A stretch of DNA of 64,000 nt, taken from positions 47,860-111,859 of the forward strand of contig CAXXGL010000013.1 of the NCBI GenBank assembly GCA_963676555.2, in the 5' to 3' direction. Source of the DNA: Geopsychrobacteraceae bacterium (lineage in GTDB: Bacteria; Desulfobacterota; Desulfuromonadia; Desulfuromonadales; Geopsychrobacteraceae). The notes beneath the pieces are model-generated. The model did not search any database, was not told where the DNA came from, and worked only from the letters and a program-made list of their open reading frames with translations. Below, one piece after another: positions 37,571-48,460 of the stretch. Both the position numbers and the translations under genes were made by a program. The stretch's first letter is position 1. Every line of letters begins with the position of its first letter.

Positions 37571-37969
37571 TCAAGACTGTTTTCCCGAGGTCGGCCAATA
37601 CGACCGGGCCGGCCGGCAGGAGCCACAGGGATGATTCACTTCCCGGAGATCGGCGCCGATCCGCTTAATCGCCTGATTACGGTTTAAACCTTCAGCGGTG
37701 TAGCGATCGAACCGTTCAACGATGTAGCGGTAGTAGTCCTGCTGATTGGCTTCGCACTGTTCATTGAACTTAAGGGCTTCGGCGGCAGCCTGAAACTTGG
37801 CGAGGCGAGTTCGACTGTTGACGGAGGCGACCAGACCGCAGAGGGAATCGAGGATCCGGGCGAAATGAAGAAAGTGTTCAGTCGGCAGCGTGACAGTGAC
37901 TTGAACCTGATCGTCATCGAGAGGGGTAACTTTGAGAGTATCTTGGAGATAATGAAACAGCGAGGTCAT
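37571..37969 (-). CDS. hypothetical protein (orphan ORF between tRNA-Pro and dif)
   Basis: 132-aa ORF with no recognisable family. Its start codon lies 34 nt from the dif-like site. Confidence 0.4.
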   Translation of the reverse strand: MTSLFHYLQDTLKVTPLDDDQVQVTVTLPTEHFLHFARILDSLCGLVASVNSRTRLAKFQAAAEALKFNEQCEANQQDYYRYIVERFDRYTAEGLNRNQAIKRIGADLREVNHPCGSCRPARSYWPTSGKQS

Positions 37970-38002: not shown

Positions 38003-38030
38003 ACGTCGCATAATATATATTATGTCAACT
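38003..38030. other. dif: dif-like XerC/XerD recombination site (left junction of the element)
   Basis: ACGTCGCATAA-TATATA-TTATGTCAACT. Compare E. coli dif GGTGCGCATAA-TGTATA-TTATGTTAAAT: the inner 7 nt of the XerC arm and 9 of 11 nt of the XerD arm match. Positions 38012-38037 are repeated exactly at 48408-48433. Confidence 0.65.
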
Positions 38031-38122
38031 AAAATATTGTACGGCTAAACAGTCAGATAAGCGGCTATACGTTTTTAAAGGATAATCCCTTTTAAACTCA
38101 TCCCGCTTTACTGTCAAGCAAA

Positions 38123-39664
38123 TTAGTAGACTATCCGCAGTTCTCCGGTTGATGTTTTATAAACGTTGCCGCCTTCGGCCCCGCCAGCTATGGCCTCCGC
38201 ATTGTCGGCATAGGTCGGAATTCTCAATTTAAAAACACCCTGCGCCATTTCCCCTTCACCTTCAAACCGGAACCAGTCCCCATATCCACGCAGCACCCGA
38301 TAAGGACTATCAGCGCCGCCCGAAAGATAAATCCCATCCCCGGCGATTCTCACCCGTGGATAAACTTCCCCTTCCGGATTTATTGTCGCATCATAGAGCC
38401 CCTTTGTCGGGTAATAAACGTCAAGCGCCCCCCTATCGTCCAACTCTGAATATATCGCCCCTGTTGTATTGTCCTGCATTGATATTGCAGCCATGCTCGA
38501 CGTTCCCGGCAGCCCAACCGTCAGCGAATCATTCAATGTTTGCCCTTTGAAATTTCCAATATTTGCAGCAAAATCGTTTACCGCGAACTGGTTTTCATAG
38601 CCGCCAATAATAATATTCCTAGAATTACTTATGCTTGTAGACTCATCGTTTAGATCAGAGACAATCGACGGAATAACCCCGTAACCACCCAAGACCAAAT
38701 TCTGACCACTCCCCGCCAAAAACTCAAGGATCGGCCCCGATTCGAAACGACAATTCAGGAAAACATTTTGTGCCCACCTGACAGAAAAAGCCTTTTCCGC
38801 CGCACCTTCCATATTAATCCCAATGAATGTGTTACCGTTGCCGATTTCCGACAGATCGAGCGAAACAGAACCAACCCCGCCCAAGCCGCTATCATTCTTA
38901 ATCAAACCACCGATGAAAGTATTTTGATTTACCCACCCGTGAACCGAATTTGATGTATCAGGCGATGTAAATTTAATGCCGACTTTATTATTGCGGACAT
39001 ACTCAATATTAAACGTGTTGTCCGTGAACCCGGCAGAAACCCCATCATCGTCCGACCCGTAAAGCCTGACCCCGGTATGAAAATTTTCAGCCGATATATT
39101 AAATGTCGAATAGCGCTGATTAACCAGCAGGATACCGACAGAGGTCGAGTCTGTAGAATCCCACTCCAGCGCCGTTTTTTTAACCCGTATCACATGTTGA
39201 CAGATAACCGGCATTCTATCCGGCCCCGCTTCCGTTGCAGTTGTCAGACTACTTTCTACCTTGACCGCAACGCCATTCCCAGAGTAAAGCAACCGCGACC
39301 CATGCCCAAGGCGAAAACTAACACCCTGCGGCACTGTGACCGTGGTCGAGCCAATATAATAATCATGTTCCGGATTACTGGTTACAACCCTGTGACCCGA
39401 AGACAGCGCCGCTGCGATAGCCGCCGAATCATCTGTGATACCATCCCCGACAGCCCCGGCTGAGTCAATAGAATAGGCTTCGGGCAGGTAAGCACTGACA
39501 GTTCCAGAGCGCCCCGGTACGCCGATCATATCAGACCCAAGCCCGGCGTCGTTTGACATAAGTTGGCCGCGATTGACCCCGCCGAACCATGATGCAGAAA
39601 AAGCCGGGCCAGCCAGACCCGGCACGAACGCCAACAGAATAAAAAGTGTTTTAAAGAATCTCAT
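38123..39664 (-). CDS. secreted right-handed beta-helix (pectate-lyase-fold) protein; candidate spike/depolymerase
   Basis: 513 aa. Sec-type signal peptide MRFFKTLFILLAFVPGLAGPAFSA. The GDGITDDSAAIAAAL motif is typical of pectate_lyase_3/tailspike-like beta-helices, and the protein is rich in Gly/Asn/Ser beta-rich repeats. Confidence 0.7.
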   Translation of the reverse strand: MRFFKTLFILLAFVPGLAGPAFSASWFGGVNRGQLMSNDAGLGSDMIGVPGRSGTVSAYLPEAYSIDSAGAVGDGITDDSAAIAAALSSGHRVVTSNPEHDYYIGSTTVTVPQGVSFRLGHGSRLLYSGNGVAVKVESSLTTATEAGPDRMPVICQHVIRVKKTALEWDSTDSTSVGILLVNQRYSTFNISAENFHTGVRLYGSDDDGVSAGFTDNTFNIEYVRNNKVGIKFTSPDTSNSVHGWVNQNTFIGGLIKNDSGLGGVGSVSLDLSEIGNGNTFIGINMEGAAEKAFSVRWAQNVFLNCRFESGPILEFLAGSGQNLVLGGYGVIPSIVSDLNDESTSISNSRNIIIGGYENQFAVNDFAANIGNFKGQTLNDSLTVGLPGTSSMAAISMQDNTTGAIYSELDDRGALDVYYPTKGLYDATINPEGEVYPRVRIAGDGIYLSGGADSPYRVLRGYGDWFRFEGEGEMAQGVFKLRIPTYADNAEAIAGGAEGGNVYKTSTGELRIVY

Positions 39665-39670
39665 ATTTCC

Positions 39671-39835
39671 TCACTCAGAACCGCCGATTTTGAAATGATT
39701 CGGGCACAGTCGCAGTTCATCTTTCAATGTTGTTATTTCGGTTTCGTGCTTCCAAACCTTATGCACGATCCACGCAAATGCCCCGGTCTGCACAGATAGC
39801 AGAGCGGCAATAATAACAAGAAGAAATTCAAGCAT
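39671..39835 (-). CDS. small membrane protein (54 aa, not in ORF track)
   Basis: Hand-translated as MLEFLLVIIAALLSVQTGAFAWIVHKVWKHETEITTLKDELRLCPNHFKIGGSE. Its ATG overlaps the upstream stop (TGATG). It ends 6 nt before the next gene, whose RBS is GAGGAAAT. Confidence 0.45.
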   Translation of the reverse strand: MLEFLLVIIAALLSVQTGAFAWIVHKVWKHETEITTLKDELRLCPNHFKIGGSE

Positions 39836-40050
39836 CAGGCATCCTCATAATCAGGAATATTGAATATCCCCCGGAGCGCCTTCAAAACAGGAAGCATGGC
39901 ATCGTCAACCCTGCTATCGGACTCGGAAATCTTTTCCTCAATGATATCTATCAGTCCGTCAAGCCAGCGCTTTATTTGCTCATCCGGAAATGCCATAAGC
40001 AGAGCGTTGACGATGGAAGGAAGGATCATTTCAATAATTTTTGCTTTCAT
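39835..40050 (-). CDS. hypothetical acidic protein (71 aa)
   Basis: ORF with RBS AAAGGGGAG, preceded by a 100-bp AT-rich gap containing a promoter-like TTTACA-N18-TTATTA on the minus strand. Confidence 0.5.
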   Translation of the reverse strand: MKAKIIEMILPSIVNALLMAFPDEQIKRWLDGLIDIIEEKISESDSRVDDAMLPVLKALRGIFNIPDYEDA

Positions 40051-40151: not shown

Positions 40152-40406
40152 CTAATCACCATAAATAGAACCTGTGTGAAACAGGTCATACATGTCAGCT
40201 CCGAATGATTCATCAGAGCCTGAAAGCCCTTTCCAGAGTCCGTCAAAGGCGCGATTTGCAATATTGTTTTCACTGGTCGGATTCAAAGCGCCGTCCGGTT
40301 CCGTGAACTCTGCGGCAACCTTCTTAATATTGCGCTGCTGCCACCAGATCAGACCGGCCCCGGCTGCGACCATGACAAGAACCGCTCTATAATCAATATT
40401 GATCAT
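40152..40406 (-). CDS. small membrane protein (84 aa, N-terminal TM)
   Basis: TM segment AVLVMVAAGAGLIWW. The start overlaps the SLT gene stop by 4 nt. Confidence 0.55.
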   Translation of the reverse strand: MINIDYRAVLVMVAAGAGLIWWQQRNIKKVAAEFTEPDGALNPTSENNIANRAFDGLWKGLSGSDESFGADMYDLFHTGSIYGD

Positions 40407-40879
40407 GTCAACCCCACATCTTTTGAAATATCGGAAACATAAGCGACCGTTTCAGCGGGCCATGACCGGCCCCGCTCAACATTTCCGATTCCGAAGTTAT
40501 ACGCAGCAAGCGCAAGCCGCCATGAGCCGAGACGCCCGAACAACCAACGGAGATAGCGCCCCGTCGCATCAATCGACTGATAAGGATCAAGCGGATCAAT
40601 GCCGTAATCCGCCGCTGTTCCAGGCATGAATTGCATTAATCCGAGCGCACCCGCTTGAGAAACCGCCGCCGGATCGTATCGGCTTTCTTGATAAGCGATA
40701 CGAGAAAGCAAACCGGCAGGGAGACTATAACGCTCTTCGGCCTGTTGAAATGCAGCGTCATACTGTTGCCCCGCTGCTGGCGTTGACCAGGCCGACTGAG
40801 GTTTTAACAGCAGATATAAGGCAAACGCCGCCGGAGCTACCCACTTTACCGCCCACTCTCTGAAGTCCTTTTCCTTCAT
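40403..40879 (-). CDS. lytic transglycosylase (SLT domain)
   Basis: 158 aa with an N-terminal hydrophobic segment. SLT motifs: YQESRYDP (catalytic Glu-Ser), GLMQFMP and AAYNFG. Confidence 0.85.
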   Translation of the reverse strand: MKEKDFREWAVKWVAPAAFALYLLLKPQSAWSTPAAGQQYDAAFQQAEERYSLPAGLLSRIAYQESRYDPAAVSQAGALGLMQFMPGTAADYGIDPLDPYQSIDATGRYLRWLFGRLGSWRLALAAYNFGIGNVERGRSWPAETVAYVSDISKDVGLT

Positions 40880-41448
40880 ACCTTCAGCACCGTTATTGCG
40901 ACATCAATAGCCGCCGCTGCCGGGTTGTAGACATAGATCGCCCCGCCGGTTTTAATGACCGCTTCTGAATAGGGATTCAAGGGCTTGCCCCTTTTGTCCC
41001 CAGTGTTTATGTCACCTATCCGCAGCTTTTCAGCGGATAGGTTTTCTATCAGGACTTCAATAGCGTTTGCATGACCGGCATAGACCAGCGTTGTCCCTGC
41101 TGCCGCGCACGACACATCCGCCGCCGTTTCGACCGTCAAGGATCGTTCAACCGGAGCGGTCAGGTTGGCAATTTCAATATCGTCAATATTGATCTGCCCG
41201 TTTGAGCTGTAAGCCTGGATCGTCTGAGCACTGGCCGTTTCTATCTGAAACGACATGGGCCGCTCATCAAAACCGGCAAAGAAGGTAAAACGCTTGTCCA
41301 CGTTTTCCGCCCTGCCGAGGATTGTGTTTTGAGGCCCTAATATTGTCAGCGTTACCGGATAGTCAGGCTTTTTGAGTACCAGCGACCGAGCGCCTAAAAT
41401 CTTCATGCTCTGACCGGCTGTCAGTGCTTGCGTGTGAGTATTAATCAT
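40876..41448 (-). CDS. beta-rich virion protein candidate (vertex/penton-like)
   Basis: 190 aa from ATG 41448, which overlaps the upstream stop (ATGA). No TM; composition rich in beta-strand formers. Function is inferred from position only. Confidence 0.5.
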   Translation of the reverse strand: MINTHTQALTAGQSMKILGARSLVLKKPDYPVTLTILGPQNTILGRAENVDKRFTFFAGFDERPMSFQIETASAQTIQAYSSNGQINIDDIEIANLTAPVERSLTVETAADVSCAAAGTTLVYAGHANAIEVLIENLSAEKLRIGDINTGDKRGKPLNPYSEAVIKTGGAIYVYNPAAAAIDVAITVLKV

Positions 41449-41840
41449 CCGTTTGCCCTCCAAATCCAGAGCGCGACAACACCGAGAACCCCGGCCCCTA
41501 TTGCAAGTTTCTGATAATCGACCGCGCCATTTGCCGTTTGAAATGCGGTCTGGATCGCGGCACCGGTGCGCTGGATTGCTTCGCTTGCGCTTTCCGCGAG
41601 TTGCTCCCTGTAATCCGCTGTTTCCCGCGTGCGGTTTTCTTCGATCTGTTCAGCAAAGCCGACAACGGTATCAAAGTTTTCTCCGCTTTCCTCGATTGCG
41701 ACCCGCGCAAGATCAAAAGCCCCTGGGTCAACCAGGGTATTATCAGAGCCATAAATAGCCACGGCCCCATTATCAGCACCCTGGGTAACGGTCGTTAGAT
41801 TTGTTGTGCTCTTCGATTTTGAACTTGAAAAAAGGCCCAT
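41445..41840 (-). CDS. C-tail-anchored membrane protein (131 aa)
   Basis: Ser/Thr-rich N-terminus, an acidic middle and a single C-terminal TM (LAIGAGVLGVVALWIW). Confidence 0.55.
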   Translation of the reverse strand: MGLFSSSKSKSTTNLTTVTQGADNGAVAIYGSDNTLVDPGAFDLARVAIEESGENFDTVVGFAEQIEENRTRETADYREQLAESASEAIQRTGAAIQTAFQTANGAVDYQKLAIGAGVLGVVALWIWRANG

Positions 41841-41844
41841 AGCT

Positions 41845-42027
41845 TCACCGCCTTCTCAATAACAGAATGACAACCACAACCCCGGCAAACAGAACGACAT
41901 TGTTCACCGCCTTAACAGGGCTCGTGTCACCATCGAAATATATAGAACCTCCGTGAACCGTTCCGCCATATGCCGAGCTTTCAGCATTAGCGGCAGAACT
42001 CAAAGAAGGCAAAATAGGAACGCCCAT
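41845..42027 (-). CDS. small C-tail-anchored membrane protein (60 aa)
   Basis: C-terminal TM VVLFAGVVVVILLL followed by RRR. Lies 4 nt upstream of the next gene. Confidence 0.5.
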   Translation of the reverse strand: MGVPILPSLSSAANAESSAYGGTVHGGSIYFDGDTSPVKAVNNVVLFAGVVVVILLLRRR

Positions 42028-42040
42028 AACCGACCCCCCC

Positions 42041-42367
42041 CTATTTCAACAGTTTCAACAGAACCGCAGTACCGAGCGCCCCGGCTGAGACATAAAGTGC
42101 CGTCTTGTTCAGTTGCAGCCCCCACAGATTGACCACACCTACCGGGGCCGGTTGACCGGCAGGAACAACGCCAGCAGCCGCAGTATCAGCGCCAGCAGCC
42201 GCCGGAGCCTTTTCGACCGGATCAGTGCCGAATTTATCCTCAGCCCAGAGAGTTCCGACCGTTCGCCCCAGGTCAAAGGCCGTATCGGAAAGTTTATTCA
42301 ACCAGCTTGAAAAGCCGCCGCCGCTTTGATTCGCTTCCGCCGCCGCCAGATTTGCAATATCTCCCAT
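42041..42367 (-). CDS. C-tail-anchored membrane protein (108 aa)
   Basis: Ala/Gly/Pro-rich linker and a C-terminal TM (ALYVSAGALGTAVLLKLL). RBS AGGGAAAAGAA upstream. Confidence 0.55.
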   Translation of the reverse strand: MGDIANLAAAEANQSGGGFSSWLNKLSDTAFDLGRTVGTLWAEDKFGTDPVEKAPAAAGADTAAAGVVPAGQPAPVGVVNLWGLQLNKTALYVSAGALGTAVLLKLLK

Positions 42368-42447
42368 TGTTCTTTTCCCTTCTGATAATAAAAAAGGGGC
42401 CGGGCCTATGCCCTAGCCCCTTTTCAGGTTGTTATTTTTCGTTACTG

Positions 42448-43254
42448 CTACAGTTGCGACAGCCGTGCATAGTATTCTGCAATGGTATTGACAACGCCGG
42501 TTGCTCCGACCGTCAATTCAAACTGCAGGCTTTGAGCATTGCCATTGTTGATCACCCGTTTCATATCACCGTTAACCACGGGGTCATAAACAAAGTGTCC
42601 GTTCTGCGCGGCCATGTCGCGTTCCTCCTGGAGAAACTGAGCGACAGTAACTGGAATTTGATCAAAAATAGCCAAGCCGTTTTTCTTGACGGTCAGTTCA
42701 GTCGGAGAGCCGCCAAAAAAATGAACCCGCTTGATATAGTTGTCAGTGCCAGGGCCATGCGGCAGGACAATCGGAAACTTTCCGGTCGAAGAAAAGTTGT
42801 TACCCTGGGGAATCATGGCCAGAATTCGGGTTTCTTCGGTCAGCGCTTGCGCCTCCGAGATTTCCGCATAACCAACCAGAGTCGGAGCGGTTGCCCCGGC
42901 GATAGTGACTTCAACGGTAAAGCTGGTCACGCCCTGCGCTGTCGGGATCGCCCCGGCATTCATCCCGGCGAGATTCGCAGCAATTTGTGCCGGTTCGGTG
43001 AAGTCGAGCGAGATATAACCCGCATCGTCAGGAATGCCCCGGTATTTGTTGATTGTGTCAAGCTGTGATCCGGTCAGATCGTAAAAGATTTTTCCGTTCA
43101 GCTTGCAGACGATCCGCGAAAGCATGGCCTTTGTCAGAGCAGTTCCTCCGAGCGCCAGAATGATCCGGTGATAGGTCGGCCCGAGTTCACATTCATGGAC
43201 CGCAGTACCAGCGGCAACCACATTCTGAAAAGGAAGCATTTTTTTTGTCAGCAT
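42448..43254 (-). CDS. major capsid protein candidate (PM2 P2-like, jelly-roll)
   Basis: 268 aa, no TM, beta-rich. It is the largest soluble protein of the structural block. Its length and N-terminal pattern (F.NV.AG......L..G.TY..I.L) resemble PM2 P2 as I recall it; not verified by search. Confidence 0.55.
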   Translation of the reverse strand: MLTKKMLPFQNVVAAGTAVHECELGPTYHRIILALGGTALTKAMLSRIVCKLNGKIFYDLTGSQLDTINKYRGIPDDAGYISLDFTEPAQIAANLAGMNAGAIPTAQGVTSFTVEVTIAGATAPTLVGYAEISEAQALTEETRILAMIPQGNNFSSTGKFPIVLPHGPGTDNYIKRVHFFGGSPTELTVKKNGLAIFDQIPVTVAQFLQEERDMAAQNGHFVYDPVVNGDMKRVINNGNAQSLQFELTVGATGVVNTIAEYYARLSQL

Positions 43255-43288
43255 GTCAGTCCCCTTTAATCAACAACGTCAATCAACA

Positions 43289-43450
43289 ATGTCAGCGGCT
43301 TTTTTTGCCATATCGCCAACAGTACCGCCGACAGCGTTACCACCAGCACGAAGCCCCCAGCCAACCAGACCGCCGACCGCGAGAGTCAGCACAGCCGTTG
43401 CCACAAATTTTGTGTCCAGAGTTACCCCGAAAAGTTTCATTTTTCGCCCC
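43289..43450 (-). CDS. small membrane protein (53 aa, not in ORF track)
   Basis: Hand-translated as MKLFGVTLDTKFVATAVLTLAVGGLVGWGLRAGGNAVGGTVGDMAKKAADIVD. RBS AAAGGGG upstream; one TM. Confidence 0.45.
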
Positions 43451-43505: not shown

Positions 43506-43534
43506 AGCCGGAGCATTTACAATATGCCCCGGCT
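43506..43534 (-). terminator. hairpin between early and structural modules
   Basis: Minus strand reads AGCCGGGGCAT-ATTGTAA-ATGCTCCGGCT (one G-U pair), followed by TTGTTGT. The U-tract is weak. Confidence 0.35.
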
Positions 43535-44039: not shown

Positions 44040-44564
44040 TCAAAACGCCCTGTCCTTTGTCACCTTGCCGAATGACGGCACATAGAAAAACTGTCCCTGT
44101 TCAAGCTGCGGAACATCATCAATATATGGCTTCAAATCCGGGAAAGATCGCGCCAGCTCTCTGGCATCCTCCGAACCCTGGCGGAAAATAAAAAGGTTGC
44201 TGCACTGTTCGCGGATCGTCTTGTCAAGCATGGCCCCGCGCTGAGTGATAAAAAATGCTTGATGCCCTAATCCCCGGTGCATGGTTGCAATTTTCCGCAC
44301 AGCCCCGGCATGGGCACCGACCGTTTCCCCTGATTCATCCAGGACAAGCAAACAATCGGTTTCAGCTTCGGCCACTTCCAGAAATTCGGCAGGATCGCCG
44401 GTGATAAAATCAGCCAGAAAGCCGGGGTCAATCTTCGGATCGAGCACCAGGATTTTTTTATATTTCCCCGACCGGCGGAAGTGATCACGAATCAAGCGCT
44501 TAACTATTGCGCTTTTTCCGGTGTCGGTTTTTCCTGTGACCAGGGTATGAACGCCGCTTTTCAT
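44040..44564 (-). CDS. small P-loop ATPase (candidate genome-packaging ATPase, FtsK/HerA- or Zot-like)
   Basis: 174 aa, no TM. Walker A VTGKTDTGKS; Walker B LLVLDESGE. Confidence 0.75.
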   Translation of the reverse strand: MKSGVHTLVTGKTDTGKSAIVKRLIRDHFRRSGKYKKILVLDPKIDPGFLADFITGDPAEFLEVAEAETDCLLVLDESGETVGAHAGAVRKIATMHRGLGHQAFFITQRGAMLDKTIREQCSNLFIFRQGSEDARELARSFPDLKPYIDDVPQLEQGQFFYVPSFGKVTKDRAF

Positions 44565-44706: not shown

Positions 44707-45618
44707 TCATTCCTGCGCCCCCTGCTCTTTTTCCTGCTCCGGCTTTTCCGCTGTGCGTTTGCCGGAAAGCCAGCCTTTTAACCGATGCCAGCGAATGCCT
44801 ACCCACTCCCAAAAAGACTGGCGGCGTTCCGGTCTGTCAGGATGAAAAACGATAACGCCGGTTGTGGTCAGCAGACCGCCGAAAAAGATCGCTTCCGGTG
44901 ATAACCTGGGGCCGCCGCCGCGCTTGATCATCATTTCAACCCCGCTTGCTTCAATCAGGTCATAGACTTTGACTTTGAACTGTCCTTGTCCAATCTCGTA
45001 ATTCATGACCTCTTTGACGGCCTTTTCCCCTGATACCTGTGACATAATTGCAGAGTGACCTGCAAGAATCGCTTTTGTGGTCAGGATTGCTTTTTGCTGG
45101 ATTGCGGCGGCTTCCGCTTCCGCGCTGGCCTGTACCTGCTCCGCCGCATCTGCATTATCAACCTTCTGCTGAATATTCGGCGGACGCTTCGGAAGTTTTT
45201 TACGGTCAGAAGCTTTTGCGGATCTCTTCAGCTTCCAAAAGCCCCGCGCTGTTTTCGGCGGAATGCCGGTTTTCGGATCAGCTTTATTTTCACAATAGTC
45301 CGGATGCCAATAACAGCCTGAGCTGTCTTTCAGAAAGCGCCAATCCTGCCCCGCTTCTGCTGCGGTTTTCTGATCCTGTTCAATTGTGCGTTTTTCCTGC
45401 GTAGCTTTGACGAAATGATCCTGTTTTTCCGGTTTTGCGTCTTCCAAACTTCTGGCTATTTCTTCTATGTGATCATCAGCCCCGGCAATTTCTTTTTCTT
45501 CAGGTAAGATAGGATCAGCCGCCGGTGGTTTTTCTTCCGGCGGCTGATTTTCGGAATGTTGCTTTTCGGTCGGTTCTTTTGTTTCAGGCGGGATGTTTTG
45601 ATCTTCTGACTTGTCCAC
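44707..45618 (-). CDS. Pro/Glu/Lys-rich low-complexity protein with C-terminal TM
   Basis: GTG 45618 is preceded by GGAGGT; the ORF-track start is 45669. The N-terminal half looks disordered (PPETKEPTEKQ..PPEEKPP), there is an Ala/Glu/Gln coiled region, and a TM AIFFGGLLTTTGVIVF. Confidence 0.55.
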   Translation of the reverse strand: MDKSEDQNIPPETKEPTEKQHSENQPPEEKPPAADPILPEEKEIAGADDHIEEIARSLEDAKPEKQDHFVKATQEKRTIEQDQKTAAEAGQDWRFLKDSSGCYWHPDYCENKADPKTGIPPKTARGFWKLKRSAKASDRKKLPKRPPNIQQKVDNADAAEQVQASAEAEAAAIQQKAILTTKAILAGHSAIMSQVSGEKAVKEVMNYEIGQGQFKVKVYDLIEASGVEMMIKRGGGPRLSPEAIFFGGLLTTTGVIVFHPDRPERRQSFWEWVGIRWHRLKGWLSGKRTAEKPEQEKEQGAQE

Positions 45619-45688
45619 TTTATGACCTCCGGTTGAAATAGCTACCAAATAGTAACTATCGTTTAGCACTTGACGCCGGTCAGGTCAA

Positions 45689-45915: not shown

Positions 45916-46119
45916 AAAAAATCCCTTTTCTAATGTTTTCAATAGGTTATCTATGATAAAGCATGTTTATGTTTGCGGAGCGTCAAGGCTGCATAAATCG
46001 GCGGATTCTGCTGCTGTTGCGTTGATTTTCCGCGCCCGCCAAAGATTAAAAACCTTTTCAGATTGAAAAAATTACTGTAAATTTTGCTGAAACTTTCACC
46101 CAAACCGCAGGAGGGAAAA

Positions 46120-46452
46120 TTGAAATATTCTGTATTGTTATTTGTTGCCGTCTTATTTCTTTCTGGATGTGCAAAACCGATTGTCATGCCAAGAGAGGGA
46201 AATGTGTACTCTTCAACCTTCACCGACAAAGACGCACAAACCGCAGTCAAAAAGGCGCTGAAGGGCGCTGAAGAAACCTGCAAAGAACAGGACAAAAGAC
46301 ACATAGTCATTGAAAGCGAACTGAACGGCGTACAGATCGAGCATGATTCCTTTACTAAGGTTGTCGCAGACACCACGCTCAACACTATGGCAGCTATCGG
46401 TCTTGATTTCCGTTCCGACAAAACAGCGAATATTCTTTTCAGGTGCGAATAG
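46120..46452 (+). CDS. lipoprotein (only plus-strand gene in the element)
   Basis: TTG 46120 is preceded by GGAGGGAAAA. Signal peptide with lipobox: MKYSVLLFVAVLFLSG-C. The mature part is about 90 aa. Confidence 0.6.
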   Translation: MKYSVLLFVAVLFLSGCAKPIVMPREGNVYSSTFTDKDAQTAVKKALKGAEETCKEQDKRHIVIESELNGVQIEHDSFTKVVADTTLNTMAAIGLDFRSDKTANILFRCE

Positions 46453-48340: not shown

Positions 48341-48370
48341 AAAAAAAAGCGGCTCTAATTATAGAGCCGC
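48341..48370 (-). terminator. strong rho-independent terminator just inside the right junction
   Basis: Minus strand reads GCGGCTCT-ATAATT-AGAGCCGC followed by TTTTTTTT. It lies between the dif-like site and the first phage gene, downstream of host qor. Confidence 0.7.
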
Positions 48371-48398: not shown

Positions 48399-48426
48399 TC
48401 ACCGTGCAATATATATTATGTCAACT
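48399..48426. other. dif-like site with degenerate XerC arm (right junction)
   Basis: TCACCGTGCAA-TATATA-TTATGTCAACT. The spacer and XerD arm are identical to the left copy, but the XerC arm is poorly conserved. Confidence 0.55.
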
Positions 48427-48460
48427 AAAATATCTGGCTGGATAATATTTCAAGGTGTCA

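Follow-up and report, generated by a model that had tools for sequence, protein, structure and literature searches.

The window analysed here comprises 64,000 nucleotides of a Geopsychrobacteraceae contig (CAXXGL010000013.1), and the part that concerns us, positions 40152-43450, holds a series of short, tightly packed genes around one for a 268-amino-acid (aa) protein. An initial annotation, made from the letters alone, had taken the many small hydrophobic proteins of this block as the sign of a virion with an internal membrane. Our analysis supports this interpretation of a PM2-like, internal-membrane virion module, and we are highly confident that the block represents the central part of the late (virion) operon in a temperate, tailless phage that has a circular double-stranded (ds) DNA genome of ~10.4 kb, belonging to the order Vinavirales (the lineage of PM2, NO16 and the autolykiviruses). 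All open reading frames (ORFs) of the block lie on the minus strand and start with ATG, most of them preceded by purine-rich ribosome-binding sequences (Table 1). The annotation had their coordinates and lengths right, as well as the three ATGA overlaps (41445-41448, 40876-40879 and 40403-40406, a gap of -4 each); the other junctions of the block measure 4, 13, 24 and 80 nt, and the remark that most genes overlap or lie 0-13 nt apart is true for five of the seven.

Capsid, vertex, packaging and replication proteins

The 268-aa protein is a PM2-type double-jelly-roll major capsid protein, its family and fold being directly established. Both Pfam domains that stand for the jelly rolls of the PM2 capsid protein are present, P2_N at 2.1e-31 and P2_C at 5.9e-32, and the AlphaFold2 model, built with 33 homologues (pLDDT 89.7, pTM 0.88), finds PM2 P2 as the best match in the PDB (2vvf_A; TM-score 0.88, root-mean-square deviation 2.2 Å, E 1.4e-21), followed by the capsid proteins of STIV, PBCV-1 and PRD1. 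The P3 proteins of PRD1 and PR772 reach a TM-score of only 0.53-0.64. The annotation had made its reading hang on whether this protein has a capsid fold; it is a double jelly roll, near-superposable on PM2 P2. The link to PM2 runs only through profiles and fold: direct tblastn and phmmer comparisons of the capsid protein with PM2 returned nothing at 1e-3, and NCBIfam holds no model matching the capsid protein, the penton, the replication initiator (Rep) or the small proteins.

The 190-aa protein (p190) is the penton base, equivalent to the N-terminal half of PM2 P1 and devoid of the distal receptor-binding domain. A direct phmmer search retrieves a 187-aa ORF in the penton position of autolykivirus 1.249.A (1.9e-10), and the top match in BFVD is an autolykivirus protein as well (6.7e-12). 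Single-sequence searches of the PDB gave only noise, and a family profile was needed: a profile of 26 family members matches the NO16 structure annotated as 'Penton base (GP14)' (9t9r, 1.4e-10) and PM2 P1 (0.01), and the profile iterated over the ORFs of the fetched loci matches residues 6-166 of PM2 P1 at 8e-28. The model (pLDDT 90.8) is all-beta, as the annotation had expected of a beta-rich protein, consisting of two beta sandwiches of eight to nine strands each, between which residues 94-100 form a linker of low confidence, and the relative orientation of the two domains is uncertain. NO16 GP14 has one jelly roll in the shell and, after a flexible link, a second one that protrudes (PMC13552765). 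The assignment rests on the profile matches together with this shared two-jelly-roll plan. A Foldseek search of the PDB with the whole model is dominated by bicupins and tandem cNMP-binding domains (TM-score 0.23-0.34), PM2 P1 coming at rank 23. The suggestion of a penton-type single jelly roll was correct as to the role and wrong as to the fold, which consists of two stacked jelly rolls with a flexible linker.

The families of the remaining core enzymes are equally established. The packaging ATPase carries a Walker A (GKTDTGKS) and a Walker B (LLVLDE) motif, matches phrog_2666 (2e-14) and, directly, the autolykivirus ATPase (5e-30), and belongs to a family found in 67 loci whose profile reaches PM2 P9 (3.7e-29). 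The Rep protein matches Pfam REP_ORF2-G2P at 1.7e-4, under the family cut-off, and its family profile matches residues 307-440 of PM2 P12 at 8e-53. The SLT lytic transglycosylase (Pfam SLT, 2.1e-25; motifs ES...GLMQ...AYNFG) is encoded after the vertex gene, in the lysin position of PM2 (P5) and NO16 (GP11), and by its sequence would serve as a peptidoglycan hydrolase for entry, lysis or both; the type of this hydrolase varies between host groups of Vinavirales (PMC9502842).

The gene order was observed directly. The element reads Rep, several small ORFs, p320, ATPase, p87, p56, p53, capsid, p108, p60, p131, penton, SLT, p84, p71, p54 and p513, and PM2 reads P12 Rep, P13, P14, ORF h, P9 ATPase, P7, P2 capsid, P3, P4, P8, P10 (gp j), P1, P5, P6, k and l. 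The block is collinear with PM2, NO16 and autolykivirus 1.249.A, and its order matches the one conserved in the Vinavirales surveyed by Yutin et al., 2022 (PMC9502842). Capsid fold, penton and collinearity bear out the annotation in its choice of a lipid-containing phage (Corticoviridae, Autolykiviridae) rather than a tailed one; its comparison with Tectiviridae was unsuitable, as the element lacks PolB and its capsid protein is of PM2 size. Accordingly, a tectivirus was rejected (no PolB, and a capsid protein of 268 aa against ~390 aa for the PRD1 P3 type), as were a tailed-phage module (HK97 capsid, portal and terminase all lacking), an autolykivirus (no PolB, a rolling-circle Rep related to PM2 P12, circular relatives) and a single-stranded DNA, FLiP-like virus, which the packaging ATPase and the PM2-type capsid protein rule out.

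Table 1. Features of the element and its borders, by position in the window (TM, transmembrane segment; KD, Kyte-Doolittle)
Feature	Position	Strand	Basis
132-aa gene (p132), between tRNA-Pro and dif	37571-37969	-	
Left junction, full chromosomal dif, ACGTCGCATAA-TATATA-TTATGTCAACT	38003-38030	+	family consensus
513 aa (p513), beta-helix, candidate receptor-binding/depolymerase spike	38123-39664	-	weak Pfam, phrog, PDB
54 aa (p54), N-terminal TM, candidate lysis factor or membrane protein	39671-39835	-	KD, L003 homologue
71 aa (p71), small acidic, amphipathic or hydrophobic N-terminus	39835-40050	-	L002 counterpart
84 aa (p84), N-terminal TM, PM2 P6 position	40152-40406	-	KD, conservation
158 aa, SLT lytic transglycosylase, hydrophobic N-terminus	40403-40879	-	Pfam SLT
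190 aa (p190), penton (vertex) base	40876-41448	-	profiles, model
131 aa (p131), tail-anchored, PM2 P10 homologue	41445-41840	-	family, hhalign
60 aa (p60), C-terminal TM and basic tail, P4/P8 position	41845-42027	-	KD
108 aa (p108), C-terminal TM, P3 position	42041-42367	-	KD, conservation
268 aa, major capsid protein, PM2 P2 type	42448-43254	-	Pfam P2_N/P2_C, AlphaFold2 model
53 aa (p53), small membrane protein, P7 position	43279-43440	-	between ATPase and capsid gene
Hairpin, 11-bp stem	43506-43534	-	
p56, small soluble protein, possibly helix-turn-helix	43563-43733	-	weak Pfam
FtsK/HerA-type genome-packaging ATPase, PM2 P9 homologue	44040-44564	-	Walker motifs, profiles
p320, Glu/Lys/Pro-rich, one hydrophobic segment, ORF h position	44707-45669	-	position
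122-aa lipoprotein	46084-46452	+	lipobox LSGC
Rolling-circle replication initiator (Rep), related to PM2 P12	46459-47643	-	profile
Hairpin and T-run (GCGGCTCTATAATTAGAGCCGC TTTTTTTT)	48349-48370	-	
Right junction: degenerate XerC arm, central region, XerD arm plus 7 nt identical to left	48399-48433	+	repeat

Small membrane proteins and accessory genes

Hydrophobic segments were sought on the Kyte-Doolittle scale with a 17-residue window. One segment each is present in the proteins of 53, 108, 60, 131, 84 and 54 aa, and others at the N-termini of the SLT enzyme (1.58) and p513; the same scan found none in the 268-aa, 190-aa or ATPase proteins. Scores of the small proteins span 1.66-2.72 (maxima: p60 2.72, p54 2.25, p53 1.94, p108 1.71, p84 1.66). 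This agrees with the single hydrophobic segment per small protein and the hydrophobic SLT N-terminus that had been annotated. The further statement that the segments lie mostly at the extreme C-terminus is slightly overstated, being right for three proteins (108, 60 and 131 aa) and wrong for three others (53, 84 and 54 aa), in which they are N-terminal or central. When residues were shuffled, p60 gave a clear-cut result (5/2000), and p54 (69/2000), p131 (104/2000) and p84 (125/2000) stood at ~3-6%.

Because the shuffle test is mostly weak, it is conservation, in substitution rates and in families, that identifies the small ORFs as real genes. Compared with the sister prophage L002, which occupies the same site in a related genome, five of seven small ORFs are under purifying selection, the ratio of non-synonymous to synonymous substitution rates (dN/dS) being 0.26 for p53, 0.28 for p108, 0.25 for p131, 0.15 for p84 and 0.13 for p71, with dS >1 in each. 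We further compared them with related loci, 63 of which were found in GTDB species genomes, nearly all of Betaproteobacteria. The p53 protein is 58% identical to its L002 counterpart, and a hydrophobic small ORF occupies the spot between ATPase and capsid genes in 38 of 59 loci. Homologues of p108 exist in L002 and in the circular relative L004, and an ORF with a C-terminal anchor lies directly 3' of the capsid gene in 57/63 loci. The L002 counterpart of p60 has 66 aa and an identical architecture at 30% identity. The p84 family extends to 8 related loci; p71 is 73% identical to its L002 counterpart, and a family search with it gave no match. As for p54, a 58-aa homologue sits at the equivalent spot in another circular relative, L003, and its positional counterpart in L002 shares 33% identity (dN/dS 0.49) and retains the architecture.

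The best characterised of these proteins, p131, is a tail-anchored membrane protein homologous to PM2 P10. Its gene immediately precedes that of the penton, an arrangement also seen in PM2 and NO16. The family was detected at 58 fetched loci, and in 61/61 members the hydrophobic segment lies at most 12 residues from the C-terminus. In hhalign the family matches PM2 P10 (gp j) with 94% probability (E 1.2e-7) over the N-terminal 44 columns only, which hold a conserved motif; against the PDB the profile finds only designed helical proteins, a compositional effect. For p108, p60, p53 and p84, equivalence to PM2 P3, P4/P8, P7 and P6 is a matter of position and architecture only. The last three small proteins, p84, p71 and p54, occupy the place of P6 and the lysis factors P17/P18 in PM2, and may function in lysis instead of belonging to the virion.

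At the end of the operon, p513 is likely a receptor-binding or depolymerase spike, judging from its matches: a weak one to Pfam Pect-lyase_RHGA_epim, one to the tail fibre family phrog_18162 (5.6e-7) and one to a beta-1,3-glucanase in the PDB (3e-7). It starts with a leader resembling a Sec signal (MRFFKTLFILLAFVPGLAGPAFSA), followed by the motif GV(S/N)RGQL..GLG(A/S)DMIG. The same motif is common to the proteins in the spike position of L002 (1954-4080 and 13744-15453) and L003 (2352-3899), which differ in their C-terminal domains, and it looks like a virion-attachment adaptor; the L003 homologue begins at the motif, without a leader. Upstream of the ATPase, p320 has homologues in L002, L003 and L004 only. 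It lies where PM2 has ORF h, whose factor may have been replaced or may have diverged past detection. The p56 protein, conserved in the same three relatives, has a weak match to HTH_Tnp_Tc3_2 (0.011).

Between p56 and p53, in a gap of 122 nt upstream of the capsid gene, we noticed a hairpin that is a possible attenuator or processing site delimiting the p53-capsid transcript; scans for promoter and terminator consensus sequences gave no excess over the shuffled expectation. The 122-aa lipoprotein gene is the sole plus-strand gene of the element. Both circular relatives, L003 and L004, encode a homologue, as does a Noviherbaspirillum prophage (L023), and the protein is a candidate for superinfection exclusion or lysogenic conversion.

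Integration at dif and the relatives of the element

The bounds of the prophage are set by a perfect 26-nt direct repeat (38012-38037 and 48408-48433) with a spacing of 10,396 bp. Both junctions were identified directly, the left as a full dif and the right as a dif-like site. The consensus drawn from the family, CGTCGCATAA-TRTATA-TTATGTAAAC, is found in 26/31 related genomes, as a single copy in 25 and as two copies in one (G007), with 0 occurrences in the reversed control. In the element's own genome the only dif-like sites are the two prophage junctions, and the cumulative GC skew peaks at the left one. Three relatives, L011, L014 and L015, preserve the empty arrangement p132-dif-ADH; L013, a fourth, has dif directly next to the ADH gene, with no p132 homologue detected. 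No recombinase family was found among the 20 ORFs of the element that were searched (p54 fell outside the scan), and the genome encodes XerC and XerD above curated cut-offs. The element has the features of an integrative mobile element exploiting Xer (IMEX), namely no recombinase of its own found, flanking dif-like sites at the chromosomal dif and a host with XerC/XerD, and would on these grounds depend on Xer. A mechanism of this kind is not new, because XerCD/dif integration of a tailless phage of Vinavirales was already proposed for NO16 (PMC9966536). The tRNA-Pro gene was discarded as attachment site, being situated ~540 nt outside the element, whose repeats are dif.

Some features next to the junctions deserve description. 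A strong hairpin followed by a T-run borders the right junction on its inner side, 3' of the host ADH gene; a similar sequence occupies the equivalent position of L002, and the hairpin could shield the prophage from host read-through. On the other side, p132 has dif-adjacent homologues in at least five relatives, and in one of them (L014, genome G003, 136-1463) a 300-aa ORF resembling the prophage Rep (1.7e-5) adjoins it. Because of these dif-adjacent homologues and the Rep-like neighbour, p132 may not be a core host gene but what is left of an older element associated with dif.

The relatives present the same organisation in several states. L002 has a capsid protein 82% identical to that of the element and a Rep of another kind (Rep_trans). 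The contigs L003 and L004, of 10,983 bp, are circularly permuted, and in both an attP-like half-dif site separates the spike gene from the regulators; close relatives occur as complete circular contigs of this length in six assemblies. At least 393 entries of the protein collection belong to the capsid family, many of them encoded on contigs ~10-12 kb long. Of the 63 related loci, 30 have a canonical dif at 5.2-6.6 kb downstream of the start of the capsid gene, and 25 of these also have a half-dif repeat, 10.3-12.0 kb upstream. Relative to the phage genes, dif is oriented '+' at some loci (among L020-L080) and '-' at others, which implies two classes of attP, with either a degenerate XerC arm or a degenerate XerD arm. 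In L002 (1450-4140), the ADH gene is separated from the inner dif-like site of the prophage by a 106-aa ORF and a spike-like gene (708 aa); the N-terminus of the 708-aa protein resembles that of the 569-aa spike of the resident prophage, and the segment looks like the remnant of a second dif-integrated element, in a tandem array at dif.

In a maximum-likelihood tree of capsid proteins the window falls in a 12-row subclade (96/96) whose other members are metagenomic contigs only. This subclade is nested in a clade of betaproteobacterial prophages, far from PM2, NO16 and the autolykivirus, which form a group (100/99) outside the 80-row clade holding the window. Corticoviridae sensu stricto (PM2, Cr39582) were discarded on this basis, the capsid protein clustering apart from PM2 and having no direct match to P2. 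The betaproteobacterial clade corresponds to 'clade D', which has no cultured member (PMC9502842). The host belongs to Desulfuromonadales; its RecG shares 70-72% identity with the Desulfuromusa, Malonomonas and Desulfuromonas proteins. We detected the capsid family in one of 233 genomes of the order and one of 401 sampled from the phylum, the single genome being the window's own both times; this is a new host phylum for the capsid clade (1 in ~630 genomes sampled).

Proposed life cycle, alternatives and known systems

From these data we propose the following scheme. The 268-aa protein would form trimeric double-jelly-roll capsomers and p190 the pentameric base of the vertices, with one jelly roll in the shell and the second protruding. 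The p108, p60, p131 (P10-like) and p53 proteins would insert into the host cytoplasmic membrane and be carried into a vesicle enclosed by the capsid, giving an internal-membrane virion into which the FtsK/HerA-type ATPase encoded upstream would load the DNA. The lipid membrane is predicted from homology and from the tail-anchored architecture of these proteins. The SLT enzyme would cut peptidoglycan at entry, exit or both, p84, p71 and p54 would act as membrane or lysis factors, and p513 would probably be the receptor-binding or depolymerase spike. Entry into and exit from the chromosome would most likely proceed through host XerC/XerD, because no recombinase was found among the ORFs searched and the integration site is the dif of the host; the excised circle is expected to carry an attP of the TCACCGTGCAA-TATATA-TTATGTCAACT type, and the p132-dif-ADH arrangement to be restored. 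Membership of individual small proteins in the virion, the spike role, inducibility and Xer dependence are what we infer.

Several observations weigh against this picture. The hydrophobic segments of several small proteins are rich in Ala and Gly and only moderately hydrophobic, and the shuffle test is weak for the Ala/Gly-rich p53 and p108. In hhalign no sequence similarity could be detected between p108, p60, p53 or p84 and PM2 P3, P4/P8, P7 or P6: comparisons of p84 with P6 and P5 and of the P3-position family with P3 were negative, and one match to P8 (91%) spans the TM stretch only. A Sec-like leader is odd for p513 if the virion is assembled in the cytoplasm. Nor was an assembly factor like ORF h recognised, the p320 family reaching ~1% in hhalign against both PM2 gp h and a 40-member ORF-h family of betaproteobacterial prophages, which itself matches PM2 gp h at 96%.

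An alternative is that the prophage is a cryptic, defective or domesticated remnant that no longer makes virions, with small ORFs in decay. The rarity of the capsid family in the host lineage (1/233 in the order, 1/401 in the phylum sample) and the apparent remnant of another such element beside the prophage of L002 point in that direction, but all core genes are intact and free of stops, both junctions are intact with their perfect repeat, five small ORFs have dN/dS values of 0.13-0.28, and near relatives are complete circular contigs in six assemblies, all of which makes such a remnant improbable. We give slightly less credit still to the idea that the small single-TM proteins serve for the most part in lysis (as holin, antiholin or spanin-like proteins, together with an SLT endolysin) and are not structural. 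It draws on the location of p84, p71 and p54 after the SLT gene, where PM2 has P6 and P17/P18, and on the hydrophobic SLT N-terminus, which could be a signal or a signal-arrest-release (SAR) anchor typical of exported endolysins. The p53, p108, p60 and p131 genes, however, are in the positions of the virion membrane proteins P7, P3, P4/P8 and P10 in PM2, NO16 and the autolykivirus, p131 is homologous to P10, the C-terminal anchor and basic tail are conserved in 57/63 and 61/61 relatives, and a peptidoglycan hydrolase is itself a virion component in NO16 and PRD1 (PMC13552765).

A double-jelly-roll virus without an internal membrane, whose hydrophobic proteins would work solely in the membrane of the host, at assembly or entry, would accommodate the marginal segments of p53, p108 and p84. 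Yet the characterised Vinavirales with such a capsid and gene order all have an internal membrane (2w0c; NO16, PMC13552765; partly general knowledge), and the capsid model is near-superposable on PM2 P2, which sits on the membrane; we regard a membrane-free virion as very improbable. The reading of a temperate phage with a PM2-like membrane virion is the one we retain.

Tailless membrane-containing phages are under-sampled, and the known hosts of Vinavirales are nearly all Alpha-, Beta- or Gammaproteobacteria. Finding an intact member among Desulfuromonadales, in a lineage that reduces metals and sulfur, broadens the host range of the order and provides a candidate inducible phage and possible genetic tool for these bacteria, and with the empty site available in relatives it adds a well-resolved case of dif/XerCD use by integrase-less phages. 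Much of clade D (63 loci) may be a family of dif-integrating, XerCD-dependent tailless phages with attP in two polarities, and the vertex may differ from those of PM2 and NO16 in combining a two-jelly-roll penton base with a separately encoded beta-helix depolymerase that bears a signal peptide. Taken jointly, that this is the first recognisable clade D member of Vinavirales in Thermodesulfobacteriota, that the clade is widely dif/XerCD-dependent and that its vertex is unlike those of PM2 and NO16 is a proposition towards which we lean only slightly.

The element is a new member of a known order and not a new type of system, and its structural module confirms a known architecture. Its local peculiarities are the SLT lysin, an unrecognisable ORF h, and a short two-jelly-roll penton accompanied by a separate beta-helix spike candidate with a signal-like leader. 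With PM2 it shares a circular genome of ~10 kb, a P12-like Rep, a P9-like ATPase, a small TM gene before the capsid gene (268 or 269 aa), C-terminally anchored proteins after it, and then a P10-like protein, a P1-like vertex, a lysin and small terminal genes. Unlike PM2, its vertex protein amounts to the first ~166 residues of P1, without the distal receptor-binding domain; it has SLT in place of P5, a separate 513-aa beta-helix protein and no ORF h homologue found, and it is temperate, at dif, whereas PM2 is known as lytic. The two capsid proteins fall in different clades. NO16 (Asemoviridae) is, like the element, temperate, tailless and integrase-less with dif-like sites (PMC9966536), and has the same gene order, a GP14 of two jelly rolls with a flexible link and a capsid protein matched at 1.1e-5. 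It differs in having a GNAT gene and a 235-aa trimeric spike of CBM type (GP13) directly after the penton gene, in its gammaproteobacterial host and in a capsid protein of a separate clade; the element lacks GNAT, has its spike candidate, the 513-aa beta-helix, at the operon end, and uses another type of lysin.

Autolykiviridae (Vibrio phage 1.249.A) provide the best capsid matches in the phage database, at 26% identity, and the same order of ATPase, small ORFs, capsid and three TM proteins, but they have linear genomes with a protein-primed PolB and a terminal protein and are lytic, in contrast to the rolling-circle Rep and integrated state of the element. The prophages of clade D, whose integration mechanism has been stated to be unclear (PMC9502842), live in Betaproteobacteria and not in Desulfuromonadales (Thermodesulfobacteriota), carry in 40 loci the ORF-h family that is not recognisable in the element, and are reported to have a T4-lysozyme-like lysin (PMC9502842) where the element has SLT. 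The capsid protein of the window nests inside this clade nonetheless, at 33-48% identity, and the ATPase, P10-like and penton families are common to both.

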